The notes under the pieces were generated by a model, which did not search any database, had not been told where the DNA came from, and worked only from the letters and a program-made list of their open reading frames with translations. The position numbers and the translations under genes were made by a program. Positions 31,428 to 49,975 of a stretch of 64,000 nucleotides of DNA are shown here, piece after piece; within the stretch, counting starts at the first letter, position 1, and each line of letters begins with the position of its first letter. This DNA is from Candidatus Pacearchaeota archaeon (GTDB lineage Archaea; Nanobdellota; Nanobdellia; UBA10117; JAFCGI01), in the NCBI GenBank assembly GCA_017608235.1, contig JAFCGI010000001.1, forward strand, positions 1,423 to 65,422, in the 5' to 3' direction.

Positions 31428-33287
31428 TTAGTGTGAATTATTAATTTTGAATTTCTCAAATATTAATTGTTTTTTATTTCCTATAAATGCATGTTCTATA
31501 ACATCTTTTATATTCTTGACTGGAATTATTTTGATTTTTGATTCTGCTTCTTTTGATAGTACAATATCTTTCTCATTAGAATATGGAATAATTATTTCTT
31601 CTATTCCTGCTTCTATTGCTGCTTCTATTTTAGGAGTAACTCCACCAACAGGCAAGACTTCTCCTCTTACAGATAAGGAGCCTGTCATTGCTAGATTCTG
31701 TTTTATTTCTATATCTTTTAATGCTGAAAGGATTGCTACTGCAACTGCTATAGATGCTGAGTCTCCTTCTACTCCTTCCCCAACTGTTTGTAAAAATTGT
31801 ACATAAAGATCACGGGTTTCTTTTATGTCTTCGCCAAAATATTTCATGATTATTGCTGAAACATTTTCTACTGCTTCTTTTGCTATTTCTCCTAACTTGC
31901 CTGTTGCAACTATTTCTGTTTTCTTACCTCCAGTTGTTACTTCTGCTTCTATAGGCAAGACAATTCCAGAATAAGCTCCTTGTCCTCCAATAACTGCTAA
32001 ACCATTAACCCTACCAACTTCAAATCCTTTTGTTCTAATTACTTCATATTCTTTTTTCTTTTCAATGTATTTATCTGCTATTTGTTGCTCTAATGGACGT
32101 GCTATTTTTTTTGCTCTGAGAATATGATCTGCTTCTACAAATTTAGCTTTTTCTTCTAAAGCTAGATCTCCTGCAGCTCTTACTAATCCTCCAAGATCCC
32201 TTAATACTAGAGTTAAGTGTCCTTTTCTGTTGCTACGTCTTCTTGCTTCTTTGATTATTTCTAAAACTGCTTCCCTTGTAAAGTGAGGTATTTTTTCATC
32301 TTTAGTTACTTCTTGTGCAATAAATCTTGCTATTCTTTCTTGATTTTCTGGAGTATCTGGGATTGTATCATTCATGAATATTTCATATCCATATCCCCTA
32401 ATTCTAGATCTTAGTGCAGGGTGCATTCTTTCTACGGTTTCAAGATTTCCTGCTGCAATTAATACAAATTTACATGGGACTGGTTCTGTTCTAACCATTG
32501 CTCCTGCAGATTTTTCTGATTGTCCTGTTATTGGATATTTTCCTTCTTGTAATGCTGTAAGAAGATCTTGCTGAGTTTTTGGATCTAAAGTTGCTACTTC
32601 ATCAATAAATAGGACTCCACCATTTGCTTTATGAATCATACCAGCTTCCACTCTTAGATGTGCTGGAGTTCCTAGTCCTCCAGATTGGAATGGATCATGT
32701 AATACATCTCCTAATAATGCACCAGCATGAGATCCAGTAGCATCAATAAAAGGACTTTTTTCTAGTCTTGAAGTATCTACAATAAGTTTCGGTTCTAGTA
32801 TTTTTGATTTTCTTCCAACAACATTAAAAGATAGTGCCATTGCTGCAAGAAATAACATTCCAGAAATTAGTGAGGCTGCAGCCATAATATCTCCATATGA
32901 TTTTCTTATCCACCATGGAAGTATTAAGGCTATTACTGCTAATATGAAAAAGAATATTTGTTGATTTTTTAGACTTGTTGCTGCTTTTAACTTTGCTTGC
33001 TGGACTAGACTTGTACCTTTACCTGTAGAAAATACTTTAATTCTTGGATGATTTTCATCCTTAAGATTTGGTATTGATAGTATATCTACTAGTTTGCTTT
33101 TAGGAAGTAATTCTGCTAGTGCTTGTCCAAGCATAGACTTTCCAGTTCCTGGATCTCCAATTAATAATATGTGTCTTTTTTGTGCTGCAGCTTTTTTTAT
33201 GATCTTAGCTGCTTCGTCCTGTCCAATTACTTGATTTATTATTTTTTCAGGAACTTTTATTTCTTTTGTAGTTTTAAAATCTAGCAT
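31428..33287 (-). CDS. lonB: Archaeal membrane-bound Lon protease (LonB)
   Basis: It has an AAA+ Walker A (GDPGTGKS), inserted TM helices, and a C-terminal Lon protease domain with the catalytic Ser in [15 protein letters not shown]. Confidence 0.9.
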
Positions 33288-33340
33288 AGGATGATCTAGA
33301 AATCAATAAGTCTTAAAAAGATTATGAAAATAAAAAAAAA

Positions 33341-33610
33341 TTATTCTTCAACTTCTTCTTCAAAGCTTGGTGCTGCAGCTTTAGAAACAATCATTATTGT
33401 TCCTATTGCTTTTACTAGTTGGTGTGGGATTATTACTCCTTTAGCACCAGATAATGTTTTATTTAAGAAAGAGTCTCTGGTTACCTTTACTCTCCAACTA
33501 TCTATTTTATTTTTTGTAATAATAGCATCTTCTACAACGCCAAATAAATCTCCAGTGTCTGTATAAACATTGAGGTTTGTTGTTTCTCCAATTTCTTTCA
33601 TTCTTAGCAT
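33341..33610 (-). CDS. PRC-barrel domain protein
   Basis: At about 89 aa it has a G-D-x-x-G-x-V beta-barrel signature (TGDLFGVVEDAII). Confidence 0.45.
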   Translation of the reverse strand: MLRMKEIGETTNLNVYTDTGDLFGVVEDAIITKNKIDSWRVKVTRDSFLNKTLSGAKGVIIPHQLVKAIGTIMIVSKAAAPSFEEEVEE

Positions 33611-33677
33611 AATATCACCCTTTGTTTCTTATTGTTTTATAACAACTATTAAAAATATAAAGTTTTTCTTTCCAGAC

Positions 33678-34361
33678 ATGACTTATATAAAGATAATAGG
33701 TACATCACATATATCTAGAGATAGTGTTAAAGAAATACTTCTTTTTATAAAAAACCAGCAACCAGATATTATTGCTGTTGAATTAGATGCAAAAAGATTA
33801 GTTGCTTTGTTTTCTGAACAAAGAAAACTTAGTTTTAGAGATATTGCTAAAATAGGTTTATTTGGATTTATTTTCAGAAGTCTAGGATCTTATGTACAAA
33901 AGAAGCTTGGAGAGAAGTTTGGTTTGGCTCCTGGATCTGATATTAAGAGTGCGATTCTTGCTGCCAAAAAAGTTAATTCTAAAATTTACTTGATAGACCA
34001 AGATATAGAACTTACCTTACAAAACTTATCTAATAAAATGGGTGCTTGGGAGAGAATAAAATTTGTATTTTATTTGTTTGGTGGTTTTGCATTTAGTGGC
34101 ATGAGTAAGAAGTTAAAAAATATTGATTTACGTAAAGTTCCTCCTGAAAATATTATTGAGGAGTTAACTATGGAAATTAAAGATAAGTTTCCAGGAATAT
34201 ATGAGGCATTGATTAGTGATAGAGATAGATATATGTCTAATAGTATATTAAAAATAGCTAAAAATCATCCTGAAAGTAAGATTTTAGTGGTAGTTGGTGC
34301 AGGTCATAAAAAAGGTATTTTAAAAATTTTAAAAAAGCATATTAGAAAAACTAAAAACTAA
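33678..34361 (+). CDS. TraB/PrgY family protein
   Basis: It has IIGTSHIS, PDIIAVELD, and GAGH. I set the start at the ATG at 33678 to avoid overlapping the upstream gene. Confidence 0.55.
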   Translation: MTYIKIIGTSHISRDSVKEILLFIKNQQPDIIAVELDAKRLVALFSEQRKLSFRDIAKIGLFGFIFRSLGSYVQKKLGEKFGLAPGSDIKSAILAAKKVNSKIYLIDQDIELTLQNLSNKMGAWERIKFVFYLFGGFAFSGMSKKLKNIDLRKVPPENIIEELTMEIKDKFPGIYEALISDRDRYMSNSILKIAKNHPESKILVVVGAGHKKGILKILKKHIRKTKN

Positions 34362-34397
34362 CAATAGATTTTTATTATAAGATTTCCTAAAAATAGC

Positions 34398-35252
34398 ATG
34401 AAGAAACTAAAGAAACCTAAAATTGAGTATAAATTTGGAAATGAATTATTTGAAATTATTTTAGCAGTACTTGTATTAGGTTTTTGCTTTAGTTTTAGAG
34501 ATTGGGGTTATGAGTTGTTTGATATTGGAATTGGGTTGTATAATTTATTTAAAAGCATAATTATTGTAGGGTTTTCTGTTGGTGTTCATGAAGTTGCGCA
34601 TAGATGGTTAGCTAAAAAATATTTTGCAAAAGTTAGATACAAGTTATGGAAAACAGGGATATTTGCTGCATTAATTCTTGTTTTTTTAACTAATGGTTAT
34701 ATAGTGTTTGCAGCTCCTGGTGTAGTAGCTATTAGTACAATATATTTATTTAGGCCTGGTGCTGCACTTCCAGGAGGATATCCTAAACATTTGGGTCCTT
34801 TTGATAGAGCAAAAATTGCTTTAATAGGTCCTATGAGTAACTTGGCATTAGCTTTTTTTGCTAAAGGTTTTTTTGAATTTTCTCCTTGGTTAATGAACAA
34901 GTTATTATTTGTAAACCTTTCTTTAGCATTTTTTAATATGTTTCCTTTCTTTATATTATTTCCTGTGCTATTTAGCAAAATATTTCCTCATAAAATTAGA
35001 AGATTTACATATAAGCATGATATTCCTTATTTAGAAGGCGAGCATATTTTATTTGGTTCATTAATAATGTGGGGATTTTCATTTATATTTTTGTGCTTTT
35101 CTATAGGATTTTTAATGTTTTTAAATGTAGGATTAGCACTTATACTTTCGATTATTAGCGCAAGTATTTTATTCTTATTTTATTGGTATTATATTCAAAT
35201 AGGTGGACCTAAAGGATTTAAGCCAAGTCCAGATTCTATTTGGTGGAAATAA
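34398..35252 (+). CDS. Membrane zinc metalloprotease of the site-2-protease (M50) family
   Basis: It has HEVAHRW within a TM helix and is multi-TM. Confidence 0.55.
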   Translation: MKKLKKPKIEYKFGNELFEIILAVLVLGFCFSFRDWGYELFDIGIGLYNLFKSIIIVGFSVGVHEVAHRWLAKKYFAKVRYKLWKTGIFAALILVFLTNGYIVFAAPGVVAISTIYLFRPGAALPGGYPKHLGPFDRAKIALIGPMSNLALAFFAKGFFEFSPWLMNKLLFVNLSLAFFNMFPFFILFPVLFSKIFPHKIRRFTYKHDIPYLEGEHILFGSLIMWGFSFIFLCFSIGFLMFLNVGLALILSIISASILFLFYWYYIQIGGPKGFKPSPDSIWWK

Positions 35253-36754
35253 ATAAAATGAAATTTCTAAAAGATAAACTAAATTTAAGACTATATCAAG
35301 AAACAATTTTTTCTTCTGCATCAAAAAAAAACTGTTTAGTTGTGTTACCTACAGGACTTGGCAAGACTATGATTGCTATTGCTTTAGCAGCATTAAGAGA
35401 AAATAAAGGAAAGATTTTAATGATGGCACCTACTAAGCCGCTGATAAATCAACATAGAAAAACTTTTTCTGAATATTTTACAAACATAGAAAAAATTAAT
35501 GTTATTTCTGGAGAGATTGCTCCAAAATTAAGAAAAGATATATGGAACAAATCTAAAATTGTGTTTGCCACACCCCAAACAATTAAAAAAGACTTAATTT
35601 ATAGTAGAATTTCTTTAGATGATGTTTCTTTAGTGGTATTTGATGAAGCTCATAGAGCTGTTGGAGATTATGCATATGTTTATATTGCTAGAAAATACAT
35701 AAATTCTGGAAAAAAACCTAGAATTTTAGGATTAACTGCTTCTCCAGGATCTGATAGACTTAAAATTAAAGAAGTTTGTTCAAATTTATTTATTGATATT
35801 ATAGAATCTAGAGATAGAGATCATAAAGAAGTTAGAGATTTTGTTAAAGCTGTAAAAATTAGTTATGAATTTATAGAATTGCCTAATGATATAAGAAATA
35901 TTTCTAAATTTTTAAATACTGCTGCATCTGGAAGAATTAATATTTTATATGATATGGGATTTATTAAAACAAAAAATATTTCTAAAAAATATTTATTAAG
36001 TTTTCAAAAATATTTGCTTAGCAAGTCTAAAAATTATTATAATTTTAGAGCTTTGTCCTTAATCTCTCAAATAATAAAAATAAAACATGCAATAGAGTTA
36101 TTAGAAGCAGAAAGCATTGAATCTTTTATTAAATACTTAAATAAAGTAGAATCACAAAAGAATAAAGCAGCAAACAGTGTTTGTTCTGATTTTGAAGTTA
36201 AAAGAGCTAAATTGCTTGGTTTAAAGTTTTTAGATAATAATATAGAACATCCAAAATTAGATAGCTTGTTGAAAGTTATTAAAAAACAAATCTCCAAGAA
36301 AAAAGATTCTAAGATTTTAGTGTTTACTGAATATAGAACAAATATTAATCCAATTATAAATAAATTATATGAGTCAAAAATATCTTGTAATAAATTTATT
36401 GGGCAATCTTCTAAGTTAGAAAAAGGAATGTCTCAGGATGATCAGATTAAAACTCTTAATAAATTTAAGAGAAATGAGTTTAATGTGTTGGTTGCTACTT
36501 CTGTTGCTGAGGAAGGCTTAGATATTCCTTCTGTAGATATGGTTATATTTTATTCTGTAGTACCTTCAGCTATAAGATCTATACAACGAAAAGGAAGAAC
36601 TGGACGGCATAATTATGGAAAAATAAGTATACTATTAACTAAAAATACAAAAGATGAGGCTTATTACTGGATAGCTCATAAAAAAGAAAAAAAAATGAAA
36701 TATATAATAGATAGTATTAGTTCAAACGAAGATCTTACAAAATTTATAAAATGA
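35240..36754 (+). CDS. hef: Hef-type SF2 helicase (the helicase portion of Hef/FANCM), a stand-alone gene
   Basis: It has the Q-motif LRLYQ, Walker A (PTGLGKT), the DEAH box (VFDEAHRAVGDYAY), and a helicase C-domain (QRKGRTGR). Confidence 0.8.
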   Translation: MVEINKMKFLKDKLNLRLYQETIFSSASKKNCLVVLPTGLGKTMIAIALAALRENKGKILMMAPTKPLINQHRKTFSEYFTNIEKINVISGEIAPKLRKDIWNKSKIVFATPQTIKKDLIYSRISLDDVSLVVFDEAHRAVGDYAYVYIARKYINSGKKPRILGLTASPGSDRLKIKEVCSNLFIDIIESRDRDHKEVRDFVKAVKISYEFIELPNDIRNISKFLNTAASGRINILYDMGFIKTKNISKKYLLSFQKYLLSKSKNYYNFRALSLISQIIKIKHAIELLEAESIESFIKYLNKVESQKNKAANSVCSDFEVKRAKLLGLKFLDNNIEHPKLDSLLKVIKKQISKKKDSKILVFTEYRTNINPIINKLYESKISCNKFIGQSSKLEKGMSQDDQIKTLNKFKRNEFNVLVATSVAEEGLDIPSVDMVIFYSVVPSAIRSIQRKGRTGRHNYGKISILLTKNTKDEAYYWIAHKKEKKMKYIIDSISSNEDLTKFIK

Positions 36755-37407
36755 TAAAAATAATTATTGATCATAGAGAAAAAAATGAAATTATTAATAT
36801 TTTAAAAAATTTAGAAAAGGGAGCTGAAATTGAAGTTAAAAATTTAAGTGTAGGAGATTTTATTTTAAGCAAGGATGTGGTTATTGAAAGGAAAACAATT
36901 AATGATTTTTTAAGTTCTTTAATAGATAAAAGATTATTTGAGCAAGCAAGGGAGCTAAAGCATAATTTTAAGAAACCATTATTTTTAATTGAGGGTAATT
37001 TAGAAGAAATTTATAATATTAGAGATATAAATGAAAATGCTATTAGAGCTGCAATGCTTTCTTTGATTTTAGATTTTGAAATTCCTTTTTTATTTTCAAC
37101 TAATATCTTGGATAGTGCTAAAATTTTGATAACTATTGCTAGAAGGGAGCAGATTCAAAAAAATAAAGAAATTAGTTTAAGAGGAAGTAAAATTGCATAT
37201 ACTATGCCTCAAATGCAGCAATATTTTGTTGAAGGGTTGCCTTTAGTAGGTCCTAATTTAGCTAAATTGCTTTTAAAAAAGTTTAAAACCCCTAAAAAAA
37301 TAGTAAATGCTAAACTTGAAAAGTTGAAAAAAGTTGAAAAAATTGGAGATAAAAAAGCAAAATTAATTAGAGATATATTAGATTTAGAATATAATGAAAA
37401 TAACTAA
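36751..37407 (+). CDS. ERCC4/XPF-type nuclease with a C-terminal HhH2 (the nuclease portion of Hef), a separate ORF
   Basis: The ERCC4 motif appears as VGDFIL...ERKTINDF. The C-terminal HhH reads VEGLPLVGPNLAKLLL. Its ATGA overlaps the helicase ORF stop. Confidence 0.8.
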   Translation: MIKIIIDHREKNEIINILKNLEKGAEIEVKNLSVGDFILSKDVVIERKTINDFLSSLIDKRLFEQARELKHNFKKPLFLIEGNLEEIYNIRDINENAIRAAMLSLILDFEIPFLFSTNILDSAKILITIARREQIQKNKEISLRGSKIAYTMPQMQQYFVEGLPLVGPNLAKLLLKKFKTPKKIVNAKLEKLKKVEKIGDKKAKLIRDILDLEYNENN

Positions 37408-37726
37408 AACAATTAAAAGGGGGCGTAAAACTGGAAGTAAAATAAGAAGCAATTTAATAGAACTTCTTTATATTTTTGGTGAGGGTTATGGTTTTGATTT
37501 GTATAAAAAATATATTAAAGTTTATGGAAATGTTAACATAAGATCTATTTATTATAATCTAAATAAAGGAGTAGATTTGGGTATTTTTAAGGTAAAAGAG
37601 ATTAAAGAAGAGCTTGGAGATTATAGTTGGGGTAGATTTAGTGAGAAAAAAATTTATTCTTTAAGTAAAAATTCTGATATTAATATTAAATTAGATGAAA
37701 ATATTAAAAAAATTTTAAATTTATAA
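37394..37726 (+). CDS. Small winged-helix (PadR-like) putative transcriptional regulator
   Basis: The pattern LIELLYIFGEGYGFDLYK ... IYYNLNKGVDLGIFK resembles a PadR wHTH. Confidence 0.35.
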   Translation: MKITKTIKRGRKTGSKIRSNLIELLYIFGEGYGFDLYKKYIKVYGNVNIRSIYYNLNKGVDLGIFKVKEIKEELGDYSWGRFSEKKIYSLSKNSDINIKLDENIKKILNL

Positions 37727-38104
37727 CTCTCACACCTTTATTTCTTATGGAGTTAATTTATTATTAATTTTAGTTTTATTTAACACACCTTTATTTCTTA
37801 TGGAAATATATAATTTATATTATAATATCATTTTTTGAAGTTTCCATAGGAAATTTATTTTTATTAATTTTAATTATATTTTAATTATATTATATAATAT
37901 ATATTATTATTTGCAATATAGTAAATAATTATTTTATTATTTAAAAATATTTAATTATATTTTGAATATTCTATTATTTTTTGAAAGAGTTTTTTCCAAT
38001 GGAAATGTAGGTCAGAGGGTCTTTTTAAATAATTATTTTAATTTTTTAGTAATTATATTCTAGAGTATATAAATTATTAATAAACCTTTGTTTCTTATGC
38101 ACTT
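37727..38104. promoter_or_regulatory. Probable chromosomal replication origin (oriC): an AT-rich unwinding region flanked by ORB-like and repeated elements, immediately upstream of orc1/cdc6
   Basis: It is a 378-bp non-coding stretch. The 37860..37990 portion is >90% A+T. It carries an ORB-like element at 37994..38021 and a dyad TTTCCATAGGAAA at 37841..37853. Three copies of ACCTTT(A/G)TTTCTTATG lie at 37731, 37784, and 38083. The adjacent orc1-dp1-dp2 arrangement matches the arrangement known from Pyrococcus. Confidence 0.65.
37994..38021 (+). promoter_or_regulatory. Origin recognition box (ORB)-like element
   Basis: TTCCAATGGAAATGTAGGTCAGAGGGTC matches the ORB consensus TTCCAnTGGAAA followed by a G-string. 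This is the established Orc1 binding site. Confidence 0.6.
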
Positions 38105-38110
38105 TTGGAT

Positions 38111-39316
38111 ATGAGACAGAGAGCATTAAATGATTATTTTGAGAGTTTCTTAGAAAAGGAAACTATATTTGAAGATAAGAAAGTTCTACAACAAAAATAT
38201 ATACCTAATTTAATATTACATAGGGAACAACAAGTTGATATTTTGGCACATATTTTGGCACCAGTTTTAAGAAAAGACAAACCATCTAATGTGTTTTTGT
38301 ATGGTAAAACCGGAACTGGAAAAACATTATGTAGTAATTATATATGTGATAAATTAAAAGAAGTAGCAGATAAGAAAAATATTCCTTTAAAAATTATATA
38401 TGTTAATTGCAAATTGAAAAAAGTTTGTGATACAGAATATAGAGTTGTTTCTTATCTTGCTAGAAGTATGGGTGTTAATGTACCTAGCACTGGTTTGCCA
38501 ACAGATGAAATATATAATTTGTTTTTGAGGGAAGTTGAGAAAGAAGAAAGTATAATTTTATTAATTTTAGATGAAATTGATCATTTAGTTAATAAAGCTG
38601 GTGATGAAATTTTATATAATCTTACAAGAATTAATTCAGAATTATCAAAATCTGAGTTATCAGTTATTGGAATTTCAAATGATGTTAGATTTATAGAAAA
38701 TATAGATCCAAGAGTTAAAAGTTCTTTAAATGAGGAAGAAGTTATTTTTCCACCATATAATGCAATTGAATTAAAAGATATTTTAAGAAAAAGAGCAGAA
38801 TTTGCTTTTAAGAAGGGAAGTATAAAAGATGGTGTTCTAGAAAAATGTGCTGCTTATGCAGCAAGGGAACATGGTGATGCTAGAAGGGCTTTGGATTTAT
38901 TAAGGGTTGCTGGTGAGATTTCAGAAAGATTAGGAGCTAGTTTTGTAGATGCAACACATATTGACTTAGCAGAAGAAAAAATAGAAAAAAATAGAATTTT
39001 AGAGATTGTTAGAACGCAACCAAGACAATCTCAGGCAGTATTATATTCTATTTTGTTATTATTAAAAAATAAAAGTGAAAGTGTTGAGACTGGTGAAATA
39101 TTTGAAAGATATAAAGAGGTTTGCATACAAGCAGGTCAAAATATATTAACACAAAGAAGGATTTCTGATTTAATCTCAGAGTTAGATATGCTTGGATTGA
39201 TAAATGCTAAAGTTATTAGCAAAGGAAGATATGGTAGGACAAGAGATATTTATGTGGCAATACCAGATTCTATAATTGATAAAGTTAGAGATAGTTTGAT
39301 AAGTGATCTAACTTAA
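38111..39316 (+). CDS. orc1: Orc1/Cdc6 replication initiator
   Basis: It has the AAA+ Walker A (LYGKTGTGKT), Walker B (ILDEIDHL), and a C-terminal winged helix. I set the start at the ATG at 38111, because the ORF-track start is a TTG. A TATA-like sequence TATATAAAT sits about 40 nt upstream. Confidence 0.95.
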   Translation: MRQRALNDYFESFLEKETIFEDKKVLQQKYIPNLILHREQQVDILAHILAPVLRKDKPSNVFLYGKTGTGKTLCSNYICDKLKEVADKKNIPLKIIYVNCKLKKVCDTEYRVVSYLARSMGVNVPSTGLPTDEIYNLFLREVEKEESIILLILDEIDHLVNKAGDEILYNLTRINSELSKSELSVIGISNDVRFIENIDPRVKSSLNEEEVIFPPYNAIELKDILRKRAEFAFKKGSIKDGVLEKCAAYAAREHGDARRALDLLRVAGEISERLGASFVDATHIDLAEEKIEKNRILEIVRTQPRQSQAVLYSILLLLKNKSESVETGEIFERYKEVCIQAGQNILTQRRISDLISELDMLGLINAKVISKGRYGRTRDIYVAIPDSIIDKVRDSLISDLT

Positions 39317-39369
39317 TTGTTTTTTGTATTATAGTAGTGTTTATAACTATTTTTTTATTCTAATTTGAA

Positions 39370-40818
39370 ATGGATAGAAAAGAAACAATTAGTTATCTTT
39401 TAAAGAAAGGTATTCTTCCTACAGATGATAAAATAAAGGAGTTAGTGGAAGAGGACTTTAAAAGTGCTTCAGATGTTCAGAGTGAACAAGAAAGAAAGCA
39501 AGATAATAATATTCAAGAACAGACACAAAAAGAGGTTATTGAGAGTAGAAGAATTGTTGAAGATATAGATACAAAGATTGAAGTTATAAGAGATTATAAA
39601 TCATCTGCCTTTAAAAAGTTTAAACTAGATGATTTTCCAAAACTTATGAGGGATAGATATGAAGCTATCAAGAGTATTTTATTAGCTAGGCAAGAAACAG
39701 AAGGTTGTGTTTCTATAAATAAGTTAAATTCAACATCTGGAAGTGCAGTAATTATAGCAATTATTTCTGATATTTTGAAATTAAGAACTGGTACTTTGAA
39801 GTTAGATTTAGAAGATCTTACAGGAAGAGTATCAGGAATTATTCCTATTAAAAACCAAGAGATGATTGAAAAGTCAAAACAGTTAGCTCTTGATGAGGTT
39901 GTTGCAGTTAAAGGATCTTTTTCAAGAGGTGTTTTATTTATTAATGATATTATTTGGCCGGACATACCATATGTAAACAGGGAAAAGTGTGATGAGGATG
40001 TTTATGTGGCTTTCTCAGGAGATTTGCATATAGGTTCTAATACTTTTTTACCTAAAGAGTTTGATAAATTTCTTAAATGGATTAGTGGCAAGTCAGGAAA
40101 TAAAACACAAAGAGATATTGCTAATAAAATTAAATATGTGTTTATTGCTGGAGATTTAGTGGATGGTGTTGGAATATATCCAGGGCAAGATAAAGAACTT
40201 ACTATAACAGATATAAGTAAACAATATGATAAGGTTGCAGAGTATTTATCTATGATTCCAAATGATAAAAAAATACTTATCTGTCCAGGAAATCATGATG
40301 TGGGAAGAATTGAGGAACCACAACCAGCATTAGATAAATATATGAGTGCGCCGGTGATAGAACTTCCAAATGTTATTAGTATTAGTAATCCAGCATATTT
40401 AAAAATTCATAAGACTAAGGGTTTTTCTGGTTTAAATGTGTTAATGTATCATGGATATAGTTTTGATTATTTTATTGATAAGATAGAATACATAAGAAAT
40501 AGTGGAGGTTATGAGTCTCCAGATAAACTAATAGAATTTTTGTTAAGGAAAAGACATTTAGCTCCTAGTCATGGGAGTACACTTTGTCTGCCATTAGAAG
40601 AAGATCCTTTGGTTATTAGACAAGTTCCAGATGTGGTTGCTACAGGACATATTCATAAAGCAAAGGTTTCTCAATATAAAGGAGTTTTAACGATTGCATC
40701 TTCTTGCTGGCAGAAAAATACAAGTTTTCAGGATAAGATGGGGTTGCATGCTGATCCTTGTAAAGTACCTATACTTAATCTTAAAACAAATTCAGTTAGA
40801 ACACTTAGTTTTATATAG
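39370..40818 (+). CDS. polB1: DNA polymerase II (PolD) small subunit DP1
   Basis: It has calcineurin-like phosphoesterase motifs (FSGDLHIGS, FIAGDLVDGVG, PGNHD, GHIH) in the DP1 architecture, plus an N-terminal OB region. Confidence 0.9.
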   Translation: MDRKETISYLLKKGILPTDDKIKELVEEDFKSASDVQSEQERKQDNNIQEQTQKEVIESRRIVEDIDTKIEVIRDYKSSAFKKFKLDDFPKLMRDRYEAIKSILLARQETEGCVSINKLNSTSGSAVIIAIISDILKLRTGTLKLDLEDLTGRVSGIIPIKNQEMIEKSKQLALDEVVAVKGSFSRGVLFINDIIWPDIPYVNREKCDEDVYVAFSGDLHIGSNTFLPKEFDKFLKWISGKSGNKTQRDIANKIKYVFIAGDLVDGVGIYPGQDKELTITDISKQYDKVAEYLSMIPNDKKILICPGNHDVGRIEEPQPALDKYMSAPVIELPNVISISNPAYLKIHKTKGFSGLNVLMYHGYSFDYFIDKIEYIRNSGGYESPDKLIEFLLRKRHLAPSHGSTLCLPLEEDPLVIRQVPDVVATGHIHKAKVSQYKGVLTIASSCWQKNTSFQDKMGLHADPCKVPILNLKTNSVRTLSFI

Positions 40819-40882
40819 TTGAGTTAATTTGTTTTATTAGTTATAATAGTTTTTAAAAAAAGAATAATTTTAAGAGGGTGTG

Positions 40883-43800
40883 ATGGCTGATCTTATTTGT
40901 AGTCCTAAGATAAGGAAGTATTTTGATTCTATTACTAAGGAAGTAAATAATCTTTATGAGGTTGCTAGAAAAGCCAGGCTTAAAGGCTATGATCCTGAAC
41001 CAGAGCCGGAAGTGTTCTTAGCAGAGAATGTTGCAGAAAGGGTTGTAGGATTAATAGCGACTGCAGCACCACAGATTCGGAATAAAGGAGTTGCAGAGAG
41101 AATAACTGAATTGGAGAATGAATATGGAGTAGGAGATTGGAGGATTGCACTTAGAATAGCAGAGGAGGTTGCCTCTGAAAAATTTTGTAAGTTTAAAGAT
41201 CTTACAGAGCAGATATCAATAGGATCTAAATTAGGATTAGCATATGTTACTAATGGGGTTGTTTCGTCTCCTTTGGAAGGAATGGCATCATTTCAACTTA
41301 AAAAAAGAAAAGATGGTAAAGATTATTTAGCGGTTTATTATGCAGGACCTATAAGAAGTGCAGGAGGTACTGCTGCAGCTGTTTCTGTATTAATAGCAGA
41401 TTATGTTAGAAGAAAATTAGGAGTTAGTGATTATGATATTACAGATGATGAGGTTAAAAGATATCAGGTAGAGATAGATGATTATGTTTCTAAAATAGCT
41501 CATAGACAGTATGTTCCAACACCAGAAGAAATTGAATTATTAGTAAGAGGTATAAAAATAGAGATTAGTGGAGATCCAACAGAGAAATATGAGGTTTCTC
41601 GTTTTAAAAGATTGGATAGAGTAGAGACGTCAATGATTAGGGGAGGAATGTGTTTGGTTTTAACTGAAGGTCCATCTTTAAAGTGTTTTAAGTTATGGAA
41701 ACAATTACAAAATTGGAAGGATGATTTTGGTTTAGATGATTGGGTTTGGCTTAAAGATTTTATTAAGCTTAGGGAGAGGATGCATTCTTCAGAACAGGAA
41801 AATAAAAAAGATGATAAAGAAAAAGAAGAAATAAAAATAAAAACAAATGATAGTTATTTAAAAGATATTGTCGCTGGCAGGCCTGTTTTTGGATATCCGA
41901 TGGCTTCAGGCGCATTTAGACTTAGATATGGCAGGACAAGAATTTCTGGGTATGGTTCGATGTGTTTGCAACCTGCTACCATGAGAGTTCTAAAGAATTA
42001 TTTGGCTACAGGCAGTCAATTGAAATTAGAAAGACCTGGTAAGGCTACTGCATTATCTGTTTGTGATAGTATTGATGGACCTGTTGTAAAATTGGAAGAT
42101 GGATCTGTTGTTAGGATAAATTCTGAAGAGGATTTTGATAAACTTGATCAAGGAATAGATGAGATATTATATTTAGGAGATATTTTGATAAGTTATGGAG
42201 AGTTTGCAGAAAATGGAGAAAGATTGCCTCCAGCAGGATATTGTGAAGAGTGGTGGAAACTTGAATTAGAAAAGCATACTAAAGATGTTCCAGATAAAGT
42301 TGATTTTAAGAAAGCTGTAGAGTTATCTAAAAAATATAAAATTCCATTGCATCCAGATTTTATTTATTTTTGGAAGGAGATTTCTAAAGAACAGTTTAGT
42401 TTGTTATTTGGCTGGCTTAAGAAAGCAGATTTTAAAAATAAAGAAGCTATACTTTCAATAGATTTTGATGCAAAGCGAGCATTAGAACTTATTGCTTGTC
42501 CACATTCTGTTAGAGATGATATAATAATTATTGATCAAGTTAATACACTGGCATTATTTTATCAATTAGGTTTAATAGATATAGATTATAAAAAATTAGA
42601 TGCTAATTTTACATATAGTGAATCTAGTTTAGATATTGTAAATAAATTATCTCCTATAGAGATAAGAGATAAGTCTGGAACTTTTATTGGATCAAGAATG
42701 GGTCGTCCTGAGAAAGCTAAGTTAAGAAAGCTTGCTGGAAGTCCACATGGTTTTTTTCCGGTTGGGAAACAAGGTGGAAGATTAAGATGTTTTCAGAGTG
42801 CATTAGAAGAAGGATATATTAAGGCAGAGTTTCCAATTTTCTTTTGTGATAATTGTAATAAAGAAACTGTTTTTTCTGTGTGTGAAACTTGCGATTTTAA
42901 GACAGAACAATTGAAAATTTGTTCTGTATGTAAGAAGAAAACAAGAGAAGATGAATGTCATGCTAAAGAAACAGTTCCATATCAAACTAAGAAAATAGAT
43001 ATTAAACATTATCTTTCTGCAGTTAGATCTAAAATTAAATTAGAACATGTACCCTCACTCATAAAAGGAGTTAGAGGAACATGGAATAAAGACCATACTT
43101 TAGAACATTTATCTAAAGCATTATTGAGAGCGAAACATAAATTGTTTGTTAATAAAGATGGAACTGTAAGATATGATATGACAGAGATGGGTATAACCCA
43201 TTTTACTCCAGAAGAAGTTGGAACTTCAATTAAGAAATTGAAAGAGCTTGGTTATGATAAAGACATAAATGGTAAAGATATAGTAAAAGAAGATCAAATT
43301 ATAGAACTTAAACCCCAAGACATGGTATTGCCTGCTTGTCCTGAATCTGAAGAAGAAGGAGCAGAAGAGATTTTATATAGAATAGCAAATTTTGTGGATG
43401 ATCTCTTAGTAAATCTTTATGGTTGTGAACCTTATTATGATCTAAAATCTAAAGAAGATTTAAGAGGGCAATTAGTTGTGGGACTAGCGCCCCATACTTC
43501 TGCAGGTATTGTTGGAAGGATTGTGGGTTTTTCAAAGACGCAAGGTTGTTTTGCACAACCATATATGCATGATGCTATGAGAAGAGATTTAGATGGTGAT
43601 GAGACTGCAGTTATGTTAGCATTAGATTTGTTTTTGAATTTTTCTAAGAGATTTTTGCCAAGTAGCAGGGGAGCAACGCAGGATGCACCATTAGTATTAA
43701 CAGTGTTATTGAATCCTGGAGAGATTGATGATGAGGTTTATGATGTTGATATTGTGTTTAAATATCCATTAGAATTATATGAAGCTGCTTTAGAAGCAAA

Positions 43801-44338
43801 GTTTCCACATGAGATTAAAATAGAACAAATCAAACATAGGCTTGGTAAACCAGAACAGTATGAGGGATTTGGATTTACTCATTCTGTGAGTAATATGAAT
43901 ATTGGACCAAGACTATCTGCATATAAAACAATTCCAGCGATGTTAGATAAGGTTGAGGGTCAGATAGAATTAGCTAGGAAGATTAGAGCATCTGATTTAG
44001 AAAAAGTTGCAACTTTAGTTATAGAAAGACATTTTTTAAGAGATATTAAAGGAAATCTAAGAAAGTTTACTATGCAAGGTTTTAGATGTGTGAGGTGTAA
44101 TGCTAAATATAGAAGACAACCTTTGTGTGGAGAGTGTACTGTTTGTGGAGGTAATATTGTATTTACTATTGCAGAAGGTACTGTAATTAAGTATTTAGAT
44201 GTTAGTTTAAAGCTAGCTAAGTATGGAAATGTAAATAGTTATTTAAAGCAGTGTCTTTCTTTACTAGAAAATAGAATAGAATCTGTGTTTGGTAAAGATA
44301 AAACAAAACAAATTGAGTTAGAGAGTTTCTTCAATTGA
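40883..44338 (+). CDS. polC: DNA polymerase II (PolD) large subunit DP2
   Basis: The N-terminus MADLICSPKIRKYFD is typical of DP2. Length is about 1150 aa. Zn-finger Cys clusters (CDNCNK...CETC, CVRCN...CGEC..C) are present. There is no intein. I set the start at the ATG at 40883. Confidence 0.95.
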   Translation: MADLICSPKIRKYFDSITKEVNNLYEVARKARLKGYDPEPEPEVFLAENVAERVVGLIATAAPQIRNKGVAERITELENEYGVGDWRIALRIAEEVASEKFCKFKDLTEQISIGSKLGLAYVTNGVVSSPLEGMASFQLKKRKDGKDYLAVYYAGPIRSAGGTAAAVSVLIADYVRRKLGVSDYDITDDEVKRYQVEIDDYVSKIAHRQYVPTPEEIELLVRGIKIEISGDPTEKYEVSRFKRLDRVETSMIRGGMCLVLTEGPSLKCFKLWKQLQNWKDDFGLDDWVWLKDFIKLRERMHSSEQENKKDDKEKEEIKIKTNDSYLKDIVAGRPVFGYPMASGAFRLRYGRTRISGYGSMCLQPATMRVLKNYLATGSQLKLERPGKATALSVCDSIDGPVVKLEDGSVVRINSEEDFDKLDQGIDEILYLGDILISYGEFAENGERLPPAGYCEEWWKLELEKHTKDVPDKVDFKKAVELSKKYKIPLHPDFIYFWKEISKEQFSLLFGWLKKADFKNKEAILSIDFDAKRALELIACPHSVRDDIIIIDQVNTLALFYQLGLIDIDYKKLDANFTYSESSLDIVNKLSPIEIRDKSGTFIGSRMGRPEKAKLRKLAGSPHGFFPVGKQGGRLRCFQSALEEGYIKAEFPIFFCDNCNKETVFSVCETCDFKTEQLKICSVCKKKTREDECHAKETVPYQTKKIDIKHYLSAVRSKIKLEHVPSLIKGVRGTWNKDHTLEHLSKALLRAKHKLFVNKDGTVRYDMTEMGITHFTPEEVGTSIKKLKELGYDKDINGKDIVKEDQIIELKPQDMVLPACPESEEEGAEEILYRIANFVDDLLVNLYGCEPYYDLKSKEDLRGQLVVGLAPHTSAGIVGRIVGFSKTQGCFAQPYMHDAMRRDLDGDETAVMLALDLFLNFSKRFLPSSRGATQDAPLVLTVLLNPGEIDDEVYDVDIVFKYPLELYEAALEAKFPHEIKIEQIKHRLGKPEQYEGFGFTHSVSNMNIGPRLSAYKTIPAMLDKVEGQIELARKIRASDLEKVATLVIERHFLRDIKGNLRKFTMQGFRCVRCNAKYRRQPLCGECTVCGGNIVFTIAEGTVIKYLDVSLKLAKYGNVNSYLKQCLSLLENRIESVFGKDKTKQIELESFFN

Positions 44339-44375
44339 ACCTTTTAGAAAAGGTATTTATAAAAAAATTGAAGAA

Positions 44376-44485
44376 AACAACCTTCTTTAGGAAAGAAGCT
44401 TGACCAAGAAAGGAGAAGTTATGAAAATGAAACAACCTTCTTTAGGAAAGAAGCTTGACCAAGAAAGGAGAAGTTATGAAAATAA
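44376..44485 (+). repeat. Perfect or near-perfect 55-bp tandem duplication (2 copies) of the RBS plus start region of the downstream gene
   Basis: Copy 1 at 44376..44430 and copy 2 at 44431..44485 both read AACAACCTTCTTTAGGAAAGAAGCTTGACCAAGAAAGGAGAAGTTATGAAAAT. Each carries an AGGAG RBS and an ATGAAAAT start. Only copy 2 is in frame with the long ORF. Confidence 0.8.
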
Positions 44486-45183
44486 GATGCCCTGATGGGT
44501 CTTTAAAAACTACAGAATGGTGTGCTAATTGTAATAAGTGTTTGCCTAAGCCTATTAAAGATGCTTTACTTCCTGTAGAAAGAAAAAGAAGTAATTCTGA
44601 GATTCCTAGATTTGGAGTTACTAGAGTTACTAATAAATGTTTAAGATCTACATATTTTGATTTAACTGAAGAGGTTGTGCATGATCTTGAAAAGTTATGG
44701 GTTTTTTCTAGAGGGCATGCATTCCATGAACATTTTAAGTTTGATGAAAAAGAACGGTTTATTAAAAAAAATTTTGGTGATTTTGAAGTAATTGGATTTA
44801 TTGATGCAGTTCATGATAGTGTAATTTATGAGTTAAAGACAACAAATAATATTCCTGAAGCTCCACAAGAACATCATAAGTTGCAAGCTCAGGCTTATTA
44901 TTCTATGATGTCTGATGAGGAAAAAGCAAAAATCAAAAAGATCTTGATAGTTTATTTGAGCTTGCAGAAGATTAAAGTTTTTGAGGTTCCTAAAAGGGAT
45001 ATTACAGAGTTTTTAGAAAAGCAAGGTAGAATTTTAGTTACTGCGCTTAAGGAGAAGATACCACCAAATAAAACTCAGAGCTGGCTTTGTAATTATTGTT
45101 CACATAAGGATAGGTGTAATGGCCATTCAGATGATTTATTTGTTTCTGATGCAAAGAGGACTAAGCAAGCTAGTTTAATTTAG
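44476..45183 (+). CDS. Cas4-like PD-(D/E)xK nuclease (DUF83 family) with an N-terminal Zn-ribbon and a C-terminal Cys cluster. It is solo, with no CRISPR locus in the window.
   Basis: The motifs follow Cas4 order. N-terminal Cys residues are RCPDG..CANCNKC. The RecB motifs are IDAVHD and YELK. QAQAYY supplies the QxxxY motif. The C-terminal cluster is CNYCSHKDRC. I set the start at the ATG at 44476, preceded by the AGGAG RBS. Confidence 0.55.
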   Translation: MKIRCPDGSLKTTEWCANCNKCLPKPIKDALLPVERKRSNSEIPRFGVTRVTNKCLRSTYFDLTEEVVHDLEKLWVFSRGHAFHEHFKFDEKERFIKKNFGDFEVIGFIDAVHDSVIYELKTTNNIPEAPQEHHKLQAQAYYSMMSDEEKAKIKKILIVYLSLQKIKVFEVPKRDITEFLEKQGRILVTALKEKIPPNKTQSWLCNYCSHKDRCNGHSDDLFVSDAKRTKQASLI

Positions 45184-45228
45184 AATTGTATCTTCTAGCA
45201 AAATAAAGCTTTTAATTTCAATTATTAA

Positions 45229-46359
45229 TTGGGTTTTAAAATGGGATCTATTCATGGTAGTCTGAAATTAATTTATGGAAGTTCTGGAGAATGGAGAGCT
45301 AAAAATGTTAAAAAAGCAATATTAGATTTATGTAATAATAAAGACAAAATATGGGTTCCTGAAGATGATTATGCAGTGGTTAATAACTTAGAAAATTTAA
45401 TTGAGGCAATTACCAATAAAGGTGATGAAGGACTTCCACTTATTGAAGCGAAAAGAATTGATTTTGGTGATGGAGAATTTAAAGTAGCTATTGACAATAG
45501 AATATCATTGAGAGATTCTGATGTCTTTTATTTTTTAGATATACATACTAATGATTATTCAAGATTAAGTAAAAGAGTTCTTGAGAGTCAAATAGGGCTG
45601 GATACTATTAGTGGGGCTAAAGCAAGTAGAGTTACTTATGTTGTGCCATTATTTCCATATGCCAGGCAGGAGAGAAGAACAGGACATGAGCCTCAATCTG
45701 CTAGAGCAATGGTTCGTATGTATGAAACTCTTGGAGCAGATTCTATTATGACTATGGATTTACATGCCCCAACAATTACTGGATTTGGTACTTGTATGGA
45801 TTTTGAACATCTTAAGATTAGGGAGTTATTTATTGATTATATAAAGAAAAATATTGGTGAAGGTGATGATATTGTTCTTTGTGCACCAGATGCAGGAGCT
45901 GGAAAAATTACTGGTTACTATGTAAGAAATCTTAATTGTGAATTGATAACTGGATTTAAGAGAAGGAATCTAAGTTCTATAGATGAAATAGATATTTTTG
46001 ATTTACCAAATATTGATTGTAGTGGTAAAAAAGCAATTATAATTGATGATTTGATAAGTACTGGAGGTACTATGCTTAAAGCAGCAAAAAAATTATATAT
46101 GGAGCGGGGAGCAGAACAAGTATTTGCATTTGCTACACATCCAGTAATGCCTGGAAATGCATTTAATAATTTTTCAAATGCATACTCAGAAGGTTATTTT
46201 CATGGACTGGTTGTTGGAGATACAGTATATAGAGATCCTGTAGGATTAAAATATAAATGGTTTACAACAATAGACACATCAAAACGTTTTGCTCAAGCTA
46301 TTATTCAGAAACATATTGGTGGATCTGTAGAATTACTGCATTATAAAGATAGAACTTAA
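45229..46359 (+). CDS. prs: Ribose-phosphate pyrophosphokinase (PRPP synthetase)-like
   Basis: It has FGDGEFKV, a Prs signature in PLFPYARQER, DLHAP, and the PRPP-binding loop IIIDDLISTGGT. An N-terminal extension of about 60 aa is present. Confidence 0.7.
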   Translation: MGFKMGSIHGSLKLIYGSSGEWRAKNVKKAILDLCNNKDKIWVPEDDYAVVNNLENLIEAITNKGDEGLPLIEAKRIDFGDGEFKVAIDNRISLRDSDVFYFLDIHTNDYSRLSKRVLESQIGLDTISGAKASRVTYVVPLFPYARQERRTGHEPQSARAMVRMYETLGADSIMTMDLHAPTITGFGTCMDFEHLKIRELFIDYIKKNIGEGDDIVLCAPDAGAGKITGYYVRNLNCELITGFKRRNLSSIDEIDIFDLPNIDCSGKKAIIIDDLISTGGTMLKAAKKLYMERGAEQVFAFATHPVMPGNAFNNFSNAYSEGYFHGLVVGDTVYRDPVGLKYKWFTTIDTSKRFAQAIIQKHIGGSVELLHYKDRT

Positions 46360-47234
46360 GCAACAATAATTGCACCTGCTAACATTAGTATGATTGCAAT
46401 TATTTTTTGAAATATAATATTTTTGGAAATTTCTTCTTCAAGTATTTTCGGATAGTATATACTTAAGACAGTTGAAAATAATAATACAAAGATTATTTGT
46501 GTAGTGATAAGTGCTTGTACTAGCGTAACAAAACCTATAGATATGGCAACAGTCATAATAAATAGTGCAGTTATATTTATGAGCTCATTTGAGGATATAA
46601 TTGTTAATATTTCTTTTTGTTTTGTTGCTAGTTTTTTAAGGTCTGGTAAGTAAATAAAAATAACTGGAAGCAATATGATTATTGCACCAAATCTTGCATA
46701 AGAAAAAGCACTCCAATAATCCATAAAATTTAGTAAATATTTAATAGATGTAGATGATAATGCTAAGAAAAGCGCTGCAAATATCATTAAGAAAAATGAT
46801 TTGTTGAATTTTATATCAAAACTTCTAATTGAGAGTAAAATAGCTCCAGCTACCAATAAAAATATTCCAATATATTTTAAGAGAGTAAAAGATTCGTTTA
46901 GAAATATAGCCGCAATTATTAGCACAAAAATAGGTGCTAAATGAAATAAGGGACCAACACGAGATACTTCTTCAAGTTGTATTGCTTTGAAATAAAGTAT
47001 GCTCATGATTACAAAGGAAGCACCAGATATTATTGCAATAAATAAATTAAATATAGATATACTAGCTAATCCTTTTACTAGTGAGATCACAAAACTTGCA
47101 GCTATGCCTATAAATCCAAATATTATTACTGGAATTGCTGGTTGTTTTATCCATTTAGACATATATATTTTGTCTATGATTTGCACTATAGCAAACATTG
47201 TTGTTGCTAGTAATGTTAATATTAGCCATAACAT
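46356..47234 (-). CDS. Membrane protein, probable EamA/DMT-superfamily transporter
   Basis: It has about 10 TM helices in two repeated halves. Confidence 0.45.
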   Translation of the reverse strand: MLWLILTLLATTMFAIVQIIDKIYMSKWIKQPAIPVIIFGFIGIAASFVISLVKGLASISIFNLFIAIISGASFVIMSILYFKAIQLEEVSRVGPLFHLAPIFVLIIAAIFLNESFTLLKYIGIFLLVAGAILLSIRSFDIKFNKSFFLMIFAALFLALSSTSIKYLLNFMDYWSAFSYARFGAIIILLPVIFIYLPDLKKLATKQKEILTIISSNELINITALFIMTVAISIGFVTLVQALITTQIIFVLLFSTVLSIYYPKILEEEISKNIIFQKIIAIILMLAGAIIVA

Positions 47235-47497
47235 TTTATTAAATGAATTTTAATTATGTTAATAAAGATTTAGTTTAGTATAGATAATAAAAACTATACT
47301 TAATATGAGTGAGCTTGTTAATAACAAACACACTACACAAGTTTAGTTTAGTCTCAATTATTTGATAAGAAAAAAAGAGATGATTCAGAGATAATAAAAA
47401 ATTACTGGAACAATTAAACAGGATTGCAAATTCTCTATAATTAATAAAGAATAGTATATAGGATATGCATGATTTTGTAATTTTGTTAAATGAATGT

Positions 47498-48748
47498 TTA
47501 CTTAGATATCAGCCATTTCCATAAAGGTATATAGTTTATCCCATCCTCATATTTTTCAAGATCTTTTGTTATGATTGTCAATTTAGCAGTTTTATATTTC
47601 TGCTGAAATTCTAATAGACTTTCTATTTCTCTCTTATGTATTTTGTTAGTATAAGTAACATTTATTGCAGTTAAATGATTATCTTTCTTCTTAACTACAA
47701 AATCTACTTCTTTTTTTCCTCTCCAGAAATAAACATCTTCTCCATGTCTTTTGAGTTCTATTAAAACAGCATTTTCTGCGAGCTGTCCAAGATCATCTGA
47801 AAATTTAAATGAGATAGCATTTCTTAAGCCAGTATCTATAGAATAGCATTTTATATCTTTTTTAAGCTGAGTTTTAACTTTCCATGAAAAATAATTTATT
47901 TTGAACAAGAGAAAAACTTCTTCAAAATAAGGAATATATTTTTTAACAGTTTCATAATGCAGGTTTAATGCTCTTGCAATACTATTGTATGAAAAAGGTG
48001 AGGATATATTTGTCATTAAGTAATATCCTATCTGCTTAACAGTTTCTGAATCTGAATTAAATCTAGAAGTTATATCTCGTGAAAGAATATCATTATATAA
48101 CTCAACTAAAATAGATTTAGAAGTTAGTGAATCTGCATTAATGGTTTCAGGAAATCCTCCAGATTTAAGATAAATTTCAAGAAGATGAATAATTCTTTCT
48201 CGTTTTGAAATCTGTTTAGGATTAATGATTTTATGATATTTTAAAAACTCTTTGAATGAAAAAGGAGTAACAATCGTTGTGAGATGTCTGCCAGTTAGCG
48301 TTTTTCCTATGTCTCTTGAAATTAAAGAAGCAGAAGAACCAGAAACAAATATTTGTTTAAATATATTCCTATCATAAAAAGTTCTTATTATTTTTTCCCA
48401 GTTTTTAATATTTTGAATTTCATCAAGAAAAACATAAGAAATATCAGGATTAATTTGTAGAGATATTTTTATTGCTTCCTCAAGATCAAGCAATTCAGGA
48501 TCATCAAAGTTAAGATATAATATATCTTTGGGGTTAATGTTTTTTTCAATCAAGCTTGAAATTATTTGATATATTAAAACAGTCTTCCCAGAACGTCTAA
48601 CTCCAATTACATCTTTAATATGTTTAGTCTTAATACTATCTATTAATCCAGATAAATAAATTCGATCAATGCCAGTAACTTTTTTGAGGCTACCTGGTGT
48701 TTCCCACCAAACATTCCATTTTTTAATTGCTTTATTCATAATATTCAA
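47498..48748 (-). CDS. AAA+ ATPase with a DUF4143 domain (COG1373 family)
   Basis: It has a P-loop (GVRRSGKT), Walker B (VFLDEIQ), and C-terminal DUF4143-like segments. Confidence 0.7.
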   Translation of the reverse strand: MNIMNKAIKKWNVWWETPGSLKKVTGIDRIYLSGLIDSIKTKHIKDVIGVRRSGKTVLIYQIISSLIEKNINPKDILYLNFDDPELLDLEEAIKISLQINPDISYVFLDEIQNIKNWEKIIRTFYDRNIFKQIFVSGSSASLISRDIGKTLTGRHLTTIVTPFSFKEFLKYHKIINPKQISKRERIIHLLEIYLKSGGFPETINADSLTSKSILVELYNDILSRDITSRFNSDSETVKQIGYYLMTNISSPFSYNSIARALNLHYETVKKYIPYFEEVFLLFKINYFSWKVKTQLKKDIKCYSIDTGLRNAISFKFSDDLGQLAENAVLIELKRHGEDVYFWRGKKEVDFVVKKKDNHLTAINVTYTNKIHKREIESLLEFQQKYKTAKLTIITKDLEKYEDGINYIPLWKWLISK

Positions 48749-48835
48749 AGTTATTCTTTATTTATAAGAGTTTCTGTTATAGTGTAAGATAAATATACTT
48801 TTATTATCACACATATGTAATATTATTTAAAAATA

Positions 48836-49564: not shown

Positions 49565-49565
49565 T

Positions 49566-49973: not shown

Positions 49974-49975
49974 TA

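Follow-up and report, generated by a model that had tools for sequence, protein, structure and literature searches.

In Pyrococcus and other Thermococcales, the replication origin oriC is followed by the initiator gene cdc6 and by the genes for both subunits of DNA polymerase D (PolD), in the order oriC-cdc6-dp1-dp2 (PMC1904270). The Pyrococcus origin carries long origin recognition boxes (ORBs) in inverted orientation around A+T-rich DNA. The same gene order, with inverted ORBs of similar sequence around A+T-rich DNA, was identified in a 64-kb stretch of contig JAFCGI010000001.1 (referred to below as the window; all coordinates are positions within it), which derives from an uncultured archaeon assigned to the phylum Nanobdellota (Woesearchaeota, DPANN). 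Within this stretch, the intergenic gap at 37727-38110, directly upstream of orc1/cdc6, is likely to be an orc1-linked chromosomal replication origin of the widespread Orc1-1/oriC1 type. An earlier note on this DNA had proposed an Orc1-type origin upstream of orc1-dp1-dp2, and this core of the proposal is upheld by the anatomy of the gap and by 80 related loci; the minimal architecture and the skew inflection that went with it are not.

Sulfolobus oriC1 is arranged as ORB1 and ORB2-DUE-ORB3, where DUE denotes the A+T-rich duplex unwinding element (PMC12141716, PMC3089459). An inverted pair, ORB2 and ORB3, flanks the DUE; an Orc1-1 monomer binds to either box in a defined polarity, both boxes are individually required for firing, and firing in vivo depends on the ORB2-DUE-ORB3 unit (PMC12141716). 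Orc1-1·ATP recruits MCM to the DUE, and the ucm motif, which is essential for oriC1, is bound by UBP, a protein reported only in Sulfolobales and Desulfurococcales (PMC12141716). The haloarchaeal oriC1 resembles the locus described here in being adjacent to cdc6 and in having inverted ORBs with G-rich tails around an A+T-rich region; it differs in belonging to GC-rich genomes with multiple origins (PMC4010727, PMC3528665), whereas the GC content of the window is about 30%. In Ca. Forterrea (Diapherotrites, DPANN), the origin also adjoins cdc6. That origin was called from a clear cumulative GC skew (PMC5905446), whereas the present call comes from ORB and DUE anatomy, with a skew that does not invert.

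Anatomy of the gap upstream of orc1

As the earlier note had read them, the genes to the right of the gap are orc1/cdc6 followed by both PolD subunits, as in Pyrococcus, and Pfam domains confirmed all three. The initiator gene orc1/cdc6 (38111-39316, plus strand, 401 amino acids) matched Cdc6_C (4e-28), Cdc6_lid (7e-23), and AAA. It is followed on the same strand by genes for the small subunit DP1 (39370-40818; Metallophos and DNA_pol_E_B) and the large subunit DP2 (40880-44338; N-terminal, central, and catalytic PolC_DP2 domains, 1e-121 to 4e-84). The 401-amino-acid product is 100% identical to database protein P0001, and its other relatives, at no more than 69% identity, are annotated as Woesearchaeota, Nanoarchaeia, or DPANN. 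The true start of orc1 is the ATG at 38111 rather than the TTG at 38105, and the end of the gap therefore moves from 38104 to 38110. No RNA gene accounts for the gap, since an Rfam scan at the gathering threshold and a tRNA scan of the whole window returned none.

Both in composition and in stability, the most extreme stretch of the 64 kb lies in the gap, a putative DUE at 37852-37985. A tract of about 130 bp with more than 90% A+T had been described here, and positions 37852-37981 indeed reach 96.2% A+T, the highest of any 130 bp in the window (the runner-up has 86.9%). Stability is lowest in the 100 bp that begin at 37861, with −87.7 kcal/mol against a window mean of −117.7 and a standard deviation of 5.8.

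Three sequence elements had also been listed for the gap, and each was recovered: the ORB-like element TTCCAATGGAAATGTAGGTCAGAGGGTC at 37994-38021, the dyad TTTCCATAGGAAA at 37841-37853, and the repeat ACCTTT(A/G)TTTCTTATG in exactly three copies, at 37734, 37787, and 38084, with any other copy in the 64 kb having at least two mismatches. Only one of these had been taken for a clear full ORB. The origin is not minimal, however, because the three ACCTTTRTTTCTTATG repeats are themselves ORB elements on the opposite strand (TCCATAAGAAAYAAAGGT); read on the minus strand, ACCTTTATTTCTTATGGA becomes TCCATAAGAAATAAAGGT, the same word as TCCAATGGAAATGTAGGT on the plus strand of the ORB first recognized.

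Sites were scored with a matrix built solely from ORB sites of the related loci, with the window excluded. Left of the A+T tract, ORB-L1 (37731-37753, minus strand; ACTCCATAAGAAATAAAGGTGTG(AGAG)), the first repeat copy, scored 29.1 bits and matched the degenerate ORB pattern exactly. ORB-L2 (37784-37806, minus strand; TTTCCATAAGAAATAAAGGTGTG), the second copy and a member of the direct-repeat family D2/D3, lies 53 bp from ORB-L1 and is the top site of the window at 31.6 bits. The dyad at 37841-37853, on the DUE-proximal side of these two, is a mini-ORB of 13.8 bits, with an ORB core and no G-rich tail; comparable tail-less mini-ORBs were found inside the left ORB in the relatives L015, L061, and L077. 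Right of the tract, ORB-R (37993-38022, plus strand; TTTCCAATGGAAATGTAGGTCAGAGGGTCT) ends in a G-rich tail and corresponds to the ORB of the earlier note; at 22.7 bits it is outscored by two of the three repeats. The third copy, ORB-P (38081-38103, minus strand; AGTGCATAAGAAACAAAGGTTTA; 16.0 bits), is a putative Orc1 auto-operator. It adjoins a TATA-like box (38077-38084, plus strand; TTAATAAA), which would belong to the orc1 promoter, and lies between this box and the orc1 ATG, 8 bp ahead of the latter.

From left to right, the gap thus reads (−)(−)dyad, DUE, (+), then TATA(−)ATG. ORB-L1 and ORB-L2 on the minus strand and ORB-R on the plus strand are inverted around DNA of 96% A+T, with the TTCCA..GGAAA half of each element towards the DUE and the AGG(K)GT-rich tail away from it. 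This is the classical layout of inverted ORBs flanking a DUE, with an additional ORB over the orc1 promoter.

The possibility that the ORB match fell within chance expectation for AT-rich DNA, raised as a caveat in the earlier note, was not borne out. The degenerate pattern TCCANNRGAAAYRNAGGT, with up to two mismatches, has seven matches in the 64 kb against 0.86 expected, a number reached by none of 100 shuffles, and four of the seven fall in the gap. In 30 block shuffles of the window, the matrix maximum was 18.2 bits and matches of at least 15 bits averaged 0.2, compared with 29.1, 31.6, 22.7, and 16.0 bits for ORB-L1, ORB-L2, ORB-R, and ORB-P, respectively. Outside the gap, two minus-strand ORB-like sites at 55333-55355 and 55445-55467 (20.8 and 23.0 bits) also scored above every shuffle. 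These lie 112 bp apart inside a LigT/2′-5′ RNA ligase gene (54940-55491; PF02834, 1.9e-31), where they encode GSIGNIA and ELPQEIKDK, and may represent either coding-sequence chance or a secondary Orc1 site.

The matrix was also applied to 49-bp oligonucleotide sequences from P. furiosus (PMC1904270), of which those carrying ORB1, ORB2, ORB3, or the mini-ORB bind Cdc6 in electrophoretic mobility shift assays, whereas an ORB1 mutant and a control do not (PMC1904270). The four binding sequences scored 19.5, 18.6, 17.4, and 16.7 bits, respectively, and the nonbinding mutant and control −8.5 and −10.9 bits. ORB-R shares 20 of 28 bases with P. furiosus ORB1. The locus nevertheless differs from the Pyrococcus origin in several respects. 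The G-rich tail is shorter here (AGGKGT(G)), and the mini-ORB content may differ as well, with one tail-less dyad beside the full ORBs in place of many. A second Cdc6-binding cluster of ORBs and mini-ORBs inside dp1 is a Pyrococcus feature (PMC1904270); in the window, no matrix site of at least 12 bits was found in dp1 (39370-40818) or anywhere in 38104-55332, and no consistent dp1 cluster was seen in the relatives. PMC1904270, in turn, mentions neither an ORB over the promoter of orc1 nor a mid-DUE palindrome, both of which are present here.

The initiator itself points in the same direction as its candidate binding sites. Its best relatives of solved structure are Orc1-1 of S. solfataricus (2qby_A, 8.5e-108) and ORC1 of A. 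pernix (2v1u_A, 1.2e-101), the match to the Orc1-2/ORC2 class being far weaker (∼1e-23). The protein belongs to the Orc1-1/A. pernix ORC1 class, members of which have been crystallized on ORB DNA. Across 20 aligned Orc1 proteins of the clade, neither the helix-turn-helix motif TQRR nor the wing motif GRYGRT varies. The locus shares with Sulfolobus oriC1 its initiator class, a set of three ORBs beside the initiator gene with two inverted around the DUE, and a discrete conserved motif midway in the DUE. Sulfolobus is unlike in having three origins with distinct initiators, as opposed to the single orc1 of the window.

Modeled on Sulfolobus oriC1 (PMC12141716), Orc1 monomers would bind ORB-L1, ORB-L2, and the mini-ORB dyad to the left of the A+T tract and ORB-R to its right. 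ATP-bound Orc1 would then bring MCM to the tract, which would melt and allow replication to begin, and a dimeric accessory factor may recognize the palindrome at the center of the tract. The start of orc1 is probably leaderless, and Orc1 on ORB-P, between this start and the TATA box, should block recruitment of RNA polymerase; occupancy of this site could thereby place the orc1-dp1-dp2 operon under autoregulation.

Conservation of the layout and a mid-DUE palindrome

Starting from the alignment of 20 Orc1 proteins, 80 orc1 loci (L001 to L080; 54 to 63% amino acid identity) were collected from species-representative genomes, all selected for carrying orc1. The ORB core TCCA..[AG]GAAA was counted 106 times within 500 bp upstream of orc1 (3.08/kb) and 45 times in the other 776 kb (0.058/kb), a 53-fold enrichment. 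Bases beyond the searched core are shared by the upstream matches only, giving the consensus tTTCCAnARGAAAyNAAGGKGT with its conserved flank AAGGKGT. Layout was counted in the 56 loci with at least 700 bp of upstream sequence. A plus-strand ORB was present at −300 to −50 in 48 of these and a minus-strand ORB at −700 to −120 in 46, and 38 had the inverted pair, with a median spacer of 218 bp and 84% A+T. In 54 of the 56 loci, against 3.6 expected, the 100 bp richest in A+T of the entire ∼13-kb locus were located no more than 700 bp upstream of orc1.

The ORB sites fall into three classes that differ in their consensus tails. Of 79 loci, 32 had a site of the promoter-proximal class, whose consensus is tTTCCAaAaGAAAtgaAGGTtTaTAAAtaTT and whose median position is −5 relative to the ATG. 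In place of the G-rich tail this class carries a TATA box (...AGGTtTaTAAAtaTT on the minus strand), so it occupies the space from the TATA box to the transcription start. TTTATA(A/T)A adjoins the promoter-proximal ORB in 32 related loci and aligns with the box at 38077-38084 in the window.

The A+T tract also coincides with a recurrent end of assembled sequence. Of the 80 related contigs, 24 break off within 700 bp upstream of orc1, mostly in the A+T tract just left of ORB-R. Only 16 ends were counted in the 6 kb downstream of orc1 (∼1.9 per 700 bp), amounting to a ∼13-fold excess of breaks at the origin.

A k-mer survey of the inter-ORB spacers in the relatives yielded CTATATAG and CAATATAG. 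The core C[AT]ATAT[AT]G was found in 46 copies at −600 to −40 of the 80 loci (1.28/kb, against 0.066/kb elsewhere), while shuffles preserving local composition gave 4.0 ± 2.0 copies and a maximum of 10. The core was present in 38 of the 57 loci with enough upstream sequence, and it extends to the palindromic consensus tTTtCWATATWGAAAAtaa (TTTTCWATATWGAAAA). On the interval from the nearest left ORB to the nearest right ORB, the palindrome has a median relative position of 0.50 (interquartile range, 0.41 to 0.58). In the window it is represented by the degenerate copy TTTGCAATATAGTAAA at 37910-37925, the midpoint of the DUE being 37920.

The palindrome parallels the Sulfolobus ucm as a positional analogue, and the two are unrelated in sequence (TTTTCWATATWGAAAA here and ATTATACAAAC there); on direct reading, the ucm motif is absent from the window DUE at 37852-37985. 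No mention of TTTTCWATATWGAAAA in the context of archaeal origins was found in the searchable literature, and it is apparently undescribed so far. Together with the promoter ORB, it appears to be a detail specific to this clade. The exact 16-mer TTTTCTATATAGAAAA, the perfect form of the palindrome, was rejected as a stand-alone origin marker: in a metagenome-wide scan, 118 of 122 sampled occurrences had no orc1 homologue nearby, and the remaining 4, at 118 to 314 bp upstream of an orc1 homologue, were all accompanied by ORBs.

The two flanks of the origin differ in their stability among the relatives. On the right, dp1 follows orc1 on the same strand in 78 of the 80 loci, and dp2 is present in 73, in 70 of them on the strand of orc1. 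On the left, the direct neighbor is LonB on the minus strand in about nine loci and the 110-amino-acid open reading frame (ORF) orf110 in five, and an inverted Hef block lies upstream of orc1 in four. The left flank therefore reads as a rearrangement hot spot beside a fixed orc1-dp1-dp2. The block found inverted relative to the window, comprising TraB-like, M50, Hef, and XPF genes on the strand opposite to orc1, was seen in L066, L064, L040, and L008. Further upstream, three relatives have a lone minus-strand ORB (21.7 to 33.3 bits) about 5.7 to 5.9 kb from orc1 (L027:269-291, L022:295-317, and L078:82-104), fused to a (GAGT)n or (GAATGA)n microsatellite; the (GTGA)n microsatellite joined to the distal ORB in these three relatives is absent from the window.

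Strand composition and alternative explanations

Raw GC skew in the window merely tracks gene orientation, and third codon positions (GC3) were therefore used. Several results weigh against an origin in the gap. A symmetric origin predicts equal coding-sense GC3 skew in minus-strand genes on its left and plus-strand genes on its right, and the values were −0.045 and +0.63, with +0.41 for plus-strand genes on the left and −0.28 for minus-strand genes on the right. After correction for orientation, the GC3 skew of the plus strand was +0.21 on the left and +0.46 on the right, with no change of sign within the 64 kb. At four-fold degenerate sites (GC4), the corresponding values were +0.28 and +0.43, and the plus strand is G- and T-rich at these sites across the whole window, on both sides of the origin and whatever the gene orientation. 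The inflection at the gap that had been proposed beforehand as a check does not occur within the 64 kb, GC3 and GC4 skew being positive on either side of 37.9 kb. The best single breakpoint lies at 36-37 kb (residual sum of squares, 76.7 versus 112.8 without a breakpoint), and breakpoints from 33 to 40 kb fit nearly equally; the change is at most a step, carried mainly by plus-strand genes. Several relatives (e.g., L075 and L013) show strong asymmetry, of either sign, running straight through the region upstream of orc1. Finally, Thermococcus kodakarensis can do without Cdc6 and without the ORB origin (PMC5663688), and a canonical architecture therefore does not prove use.

The skew is real and speaks, although not decisively, against a dominant and symmetric origin of long standing with the genes arranged as they are now. 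The missing flip weakens the origin call without overturning it, since a classical skew pattern was seen in only 18 of 224 RefSeq archaeal genomes (PMC7111523). Skew also fails in Thermococcales owing to rearrangements (PMC4640148), and rearrangement is a plausible cause of the odd skew here because the left flank is variable and sometimes inverted. When 41 related loci were pooled, the GC3 skew on either side of orc1 was about zero and on average uninformative, with individual loci heterogeneous. Gene orientation in the window is divergent around 33.3 kb and not at 37.9 kb; 83% of the coding length is on the plus strand to the right of the origin and 64% on the minus strand to its left. A chimeric join as the cause of the odd skew was rejected locally, the junction of orf110, origin, and orc1 being kept in five relatives and 34398-37726 being packed with tight, overlapping ORFs.

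These skew data are the natural ground for the idea, which is unlikely, that the Orc1-bound ORB cluster is mainly an autoregulatory or chromatin element or a weak, secondary origin, with most replication coming from other forks or from recombination-dependent initiation as in T. kodakarensis. Neutral sites of the plus strand are rich in G and T to the left and to the right of the gap, as if the 64 kb were one replichore; noninverting asymmetry recurs in some relatives such as L075 and L013; the position of ORB-P is that of a classical repressor site; and T. kodakarensis provides a precedent for a dispensable origin (PMC5663688). Autoregulation alone is insufficient, however, because conservation extends to the extreme A+T tract (in 54 of 56 loci), to the pair of inverted ORBs around it, and to the centered palindrome; ORB-P by itself would suffice for that role and would leave all three unexplained. 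Most archaeal genomes also lack the classical skew pattern (18 of 224 have it; PMC7111523), the pooled relatives have no skew, and the rearrangement hot spot on the left flank could scramble it.

A broader proposal in the same vein, rather improbable as a whole, is that the orc1-linked module of ORBs and DUE may not be the flip point of strand asymmetry in this lineage. Replication would then be strongly asymmetric or unidirectional, or would start elsewhere, in an Orc1-distal or recombination-driven manner, and the main role of the module would be that of an Orc1 auto-operator or an origin of low efficiency. Regardless of this, TTTTCWATATWGAAAA would bind a new accessory factor, a DPANN analogue of UBP; a search for UBP analogues in other lineages was explicitly suggested in PMC12141716.

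It is very improbable that the repeats are operators of another DNA-binding protein, such as the product of orf110, in what would be merely a promoter and regulatory gap. Such a role for orf110 is conceivable insofar as it is the immediate left neighbor, on the same strand, in five relatives (L002, L003, L005, L011, and L018) and has no recognizable domain. The repeats, however, match the Cdc6-bound ORBs of Pyrococcus, are conserved in about 50 loci without orf110 nearby, and accompany an Orc1-1-class gene in every locus, the loci all having been selected for that gene. In the window, orf110 (37394-37726) had no Pfam match even at an E value of ≤1 and overlaps the 3′ end of the XPF nuclease gene.

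Extra archaeal origins often derive from captured elements, as discussed in PMC4010727, and the gap could on that account be the origin of an integrated plasmid or virus carrying its own orc1 rather than a chromosomal one. This is extremely improbable here: ORC1/Cdc6 belongs to the single-copy core genes of 206 complete Nanobdellota genomes (preprint 10.64898/2026.05.13.725050), orc1 lies in a conserved operon with both PolD subunits in 70 to 78 of the 80 loci, its neighbors include the housekeeping genes for LonB, Hef/XPF, and PRPP synthetase, and no second orc1 paralogue was found within the 64-kb window. The notion of an ordinary A+T-rich intergenic region with fortuitous ORB-like words, encouraged by the 30% GC genome in which short TTCC and GGAA words are common (TTCCANNGGAAA with one mismatch has 16 matches across the window), is effectively refuted by the full-length pattern (7 matches against 0.86 expected, reached in 0 of 100 shuffles), by matrix scores far above the shuffles, and by 50- to 65-fold enrichment with positional conservation in the 80 related loci.

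Gene neighborhood and significance

Upstream of the gap, LonB is encoded on the minus strand (31428-33287), followed by a compact plus-strand block (33324-37726) comprising a small ORF, a TraB-like gene, an M50 peptidase, the Hef helicase, an ERCC4/XPF nuclease, and the 110-amino-acid ORF. Hef is split into two overlapping ORFs (35240-37407), a helicase of 504 amino acids (DEAD/Helicase_C) and an ERCC4 nuclease with HhH of 218 amino acids. The start codons of LonB and of the small plus-strand ORF diverge with only 36 bp between them (33287-33324), and it is here that the orientation of genes in the window turns from mostly minus to mostly plus. Downstream of dp2, the plus strand encodes a Cas4-like nuclease (44455-45183) and PRPP synthetase (45229-46359).

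On origin architecture, ORBs, or GC skew in Woesearchaeota or DPANN, the searchable literature yielded nothing beyond a preprint concerned with rotation to ORC1 and the Forterrea skew paper. A recent study of 208 Nanobdellota genomes follows the convention of rotating them to ORC1, without a mention of ORBs or GC skew. A concrete origin model that can be tested emerges from the window and its 80 relatives for a large, uncultured DPANN clade; it consists of the ORB consensus tTTCCAnARGAAAyNAAGGKGT, inverted ORBs around a spacer of ∼200 bp (84 to 96% A+T), an ORB operator in the orc1 promoter, and a centered palindrome. The model accounts for the frequent breaks of contigs in metagenome-assembled genomes just upstream of orc1. 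Origin calls or assembly checks based on skew may mislead in this clade, and the model offers a sequence-based means of genome orientation where skew fails.

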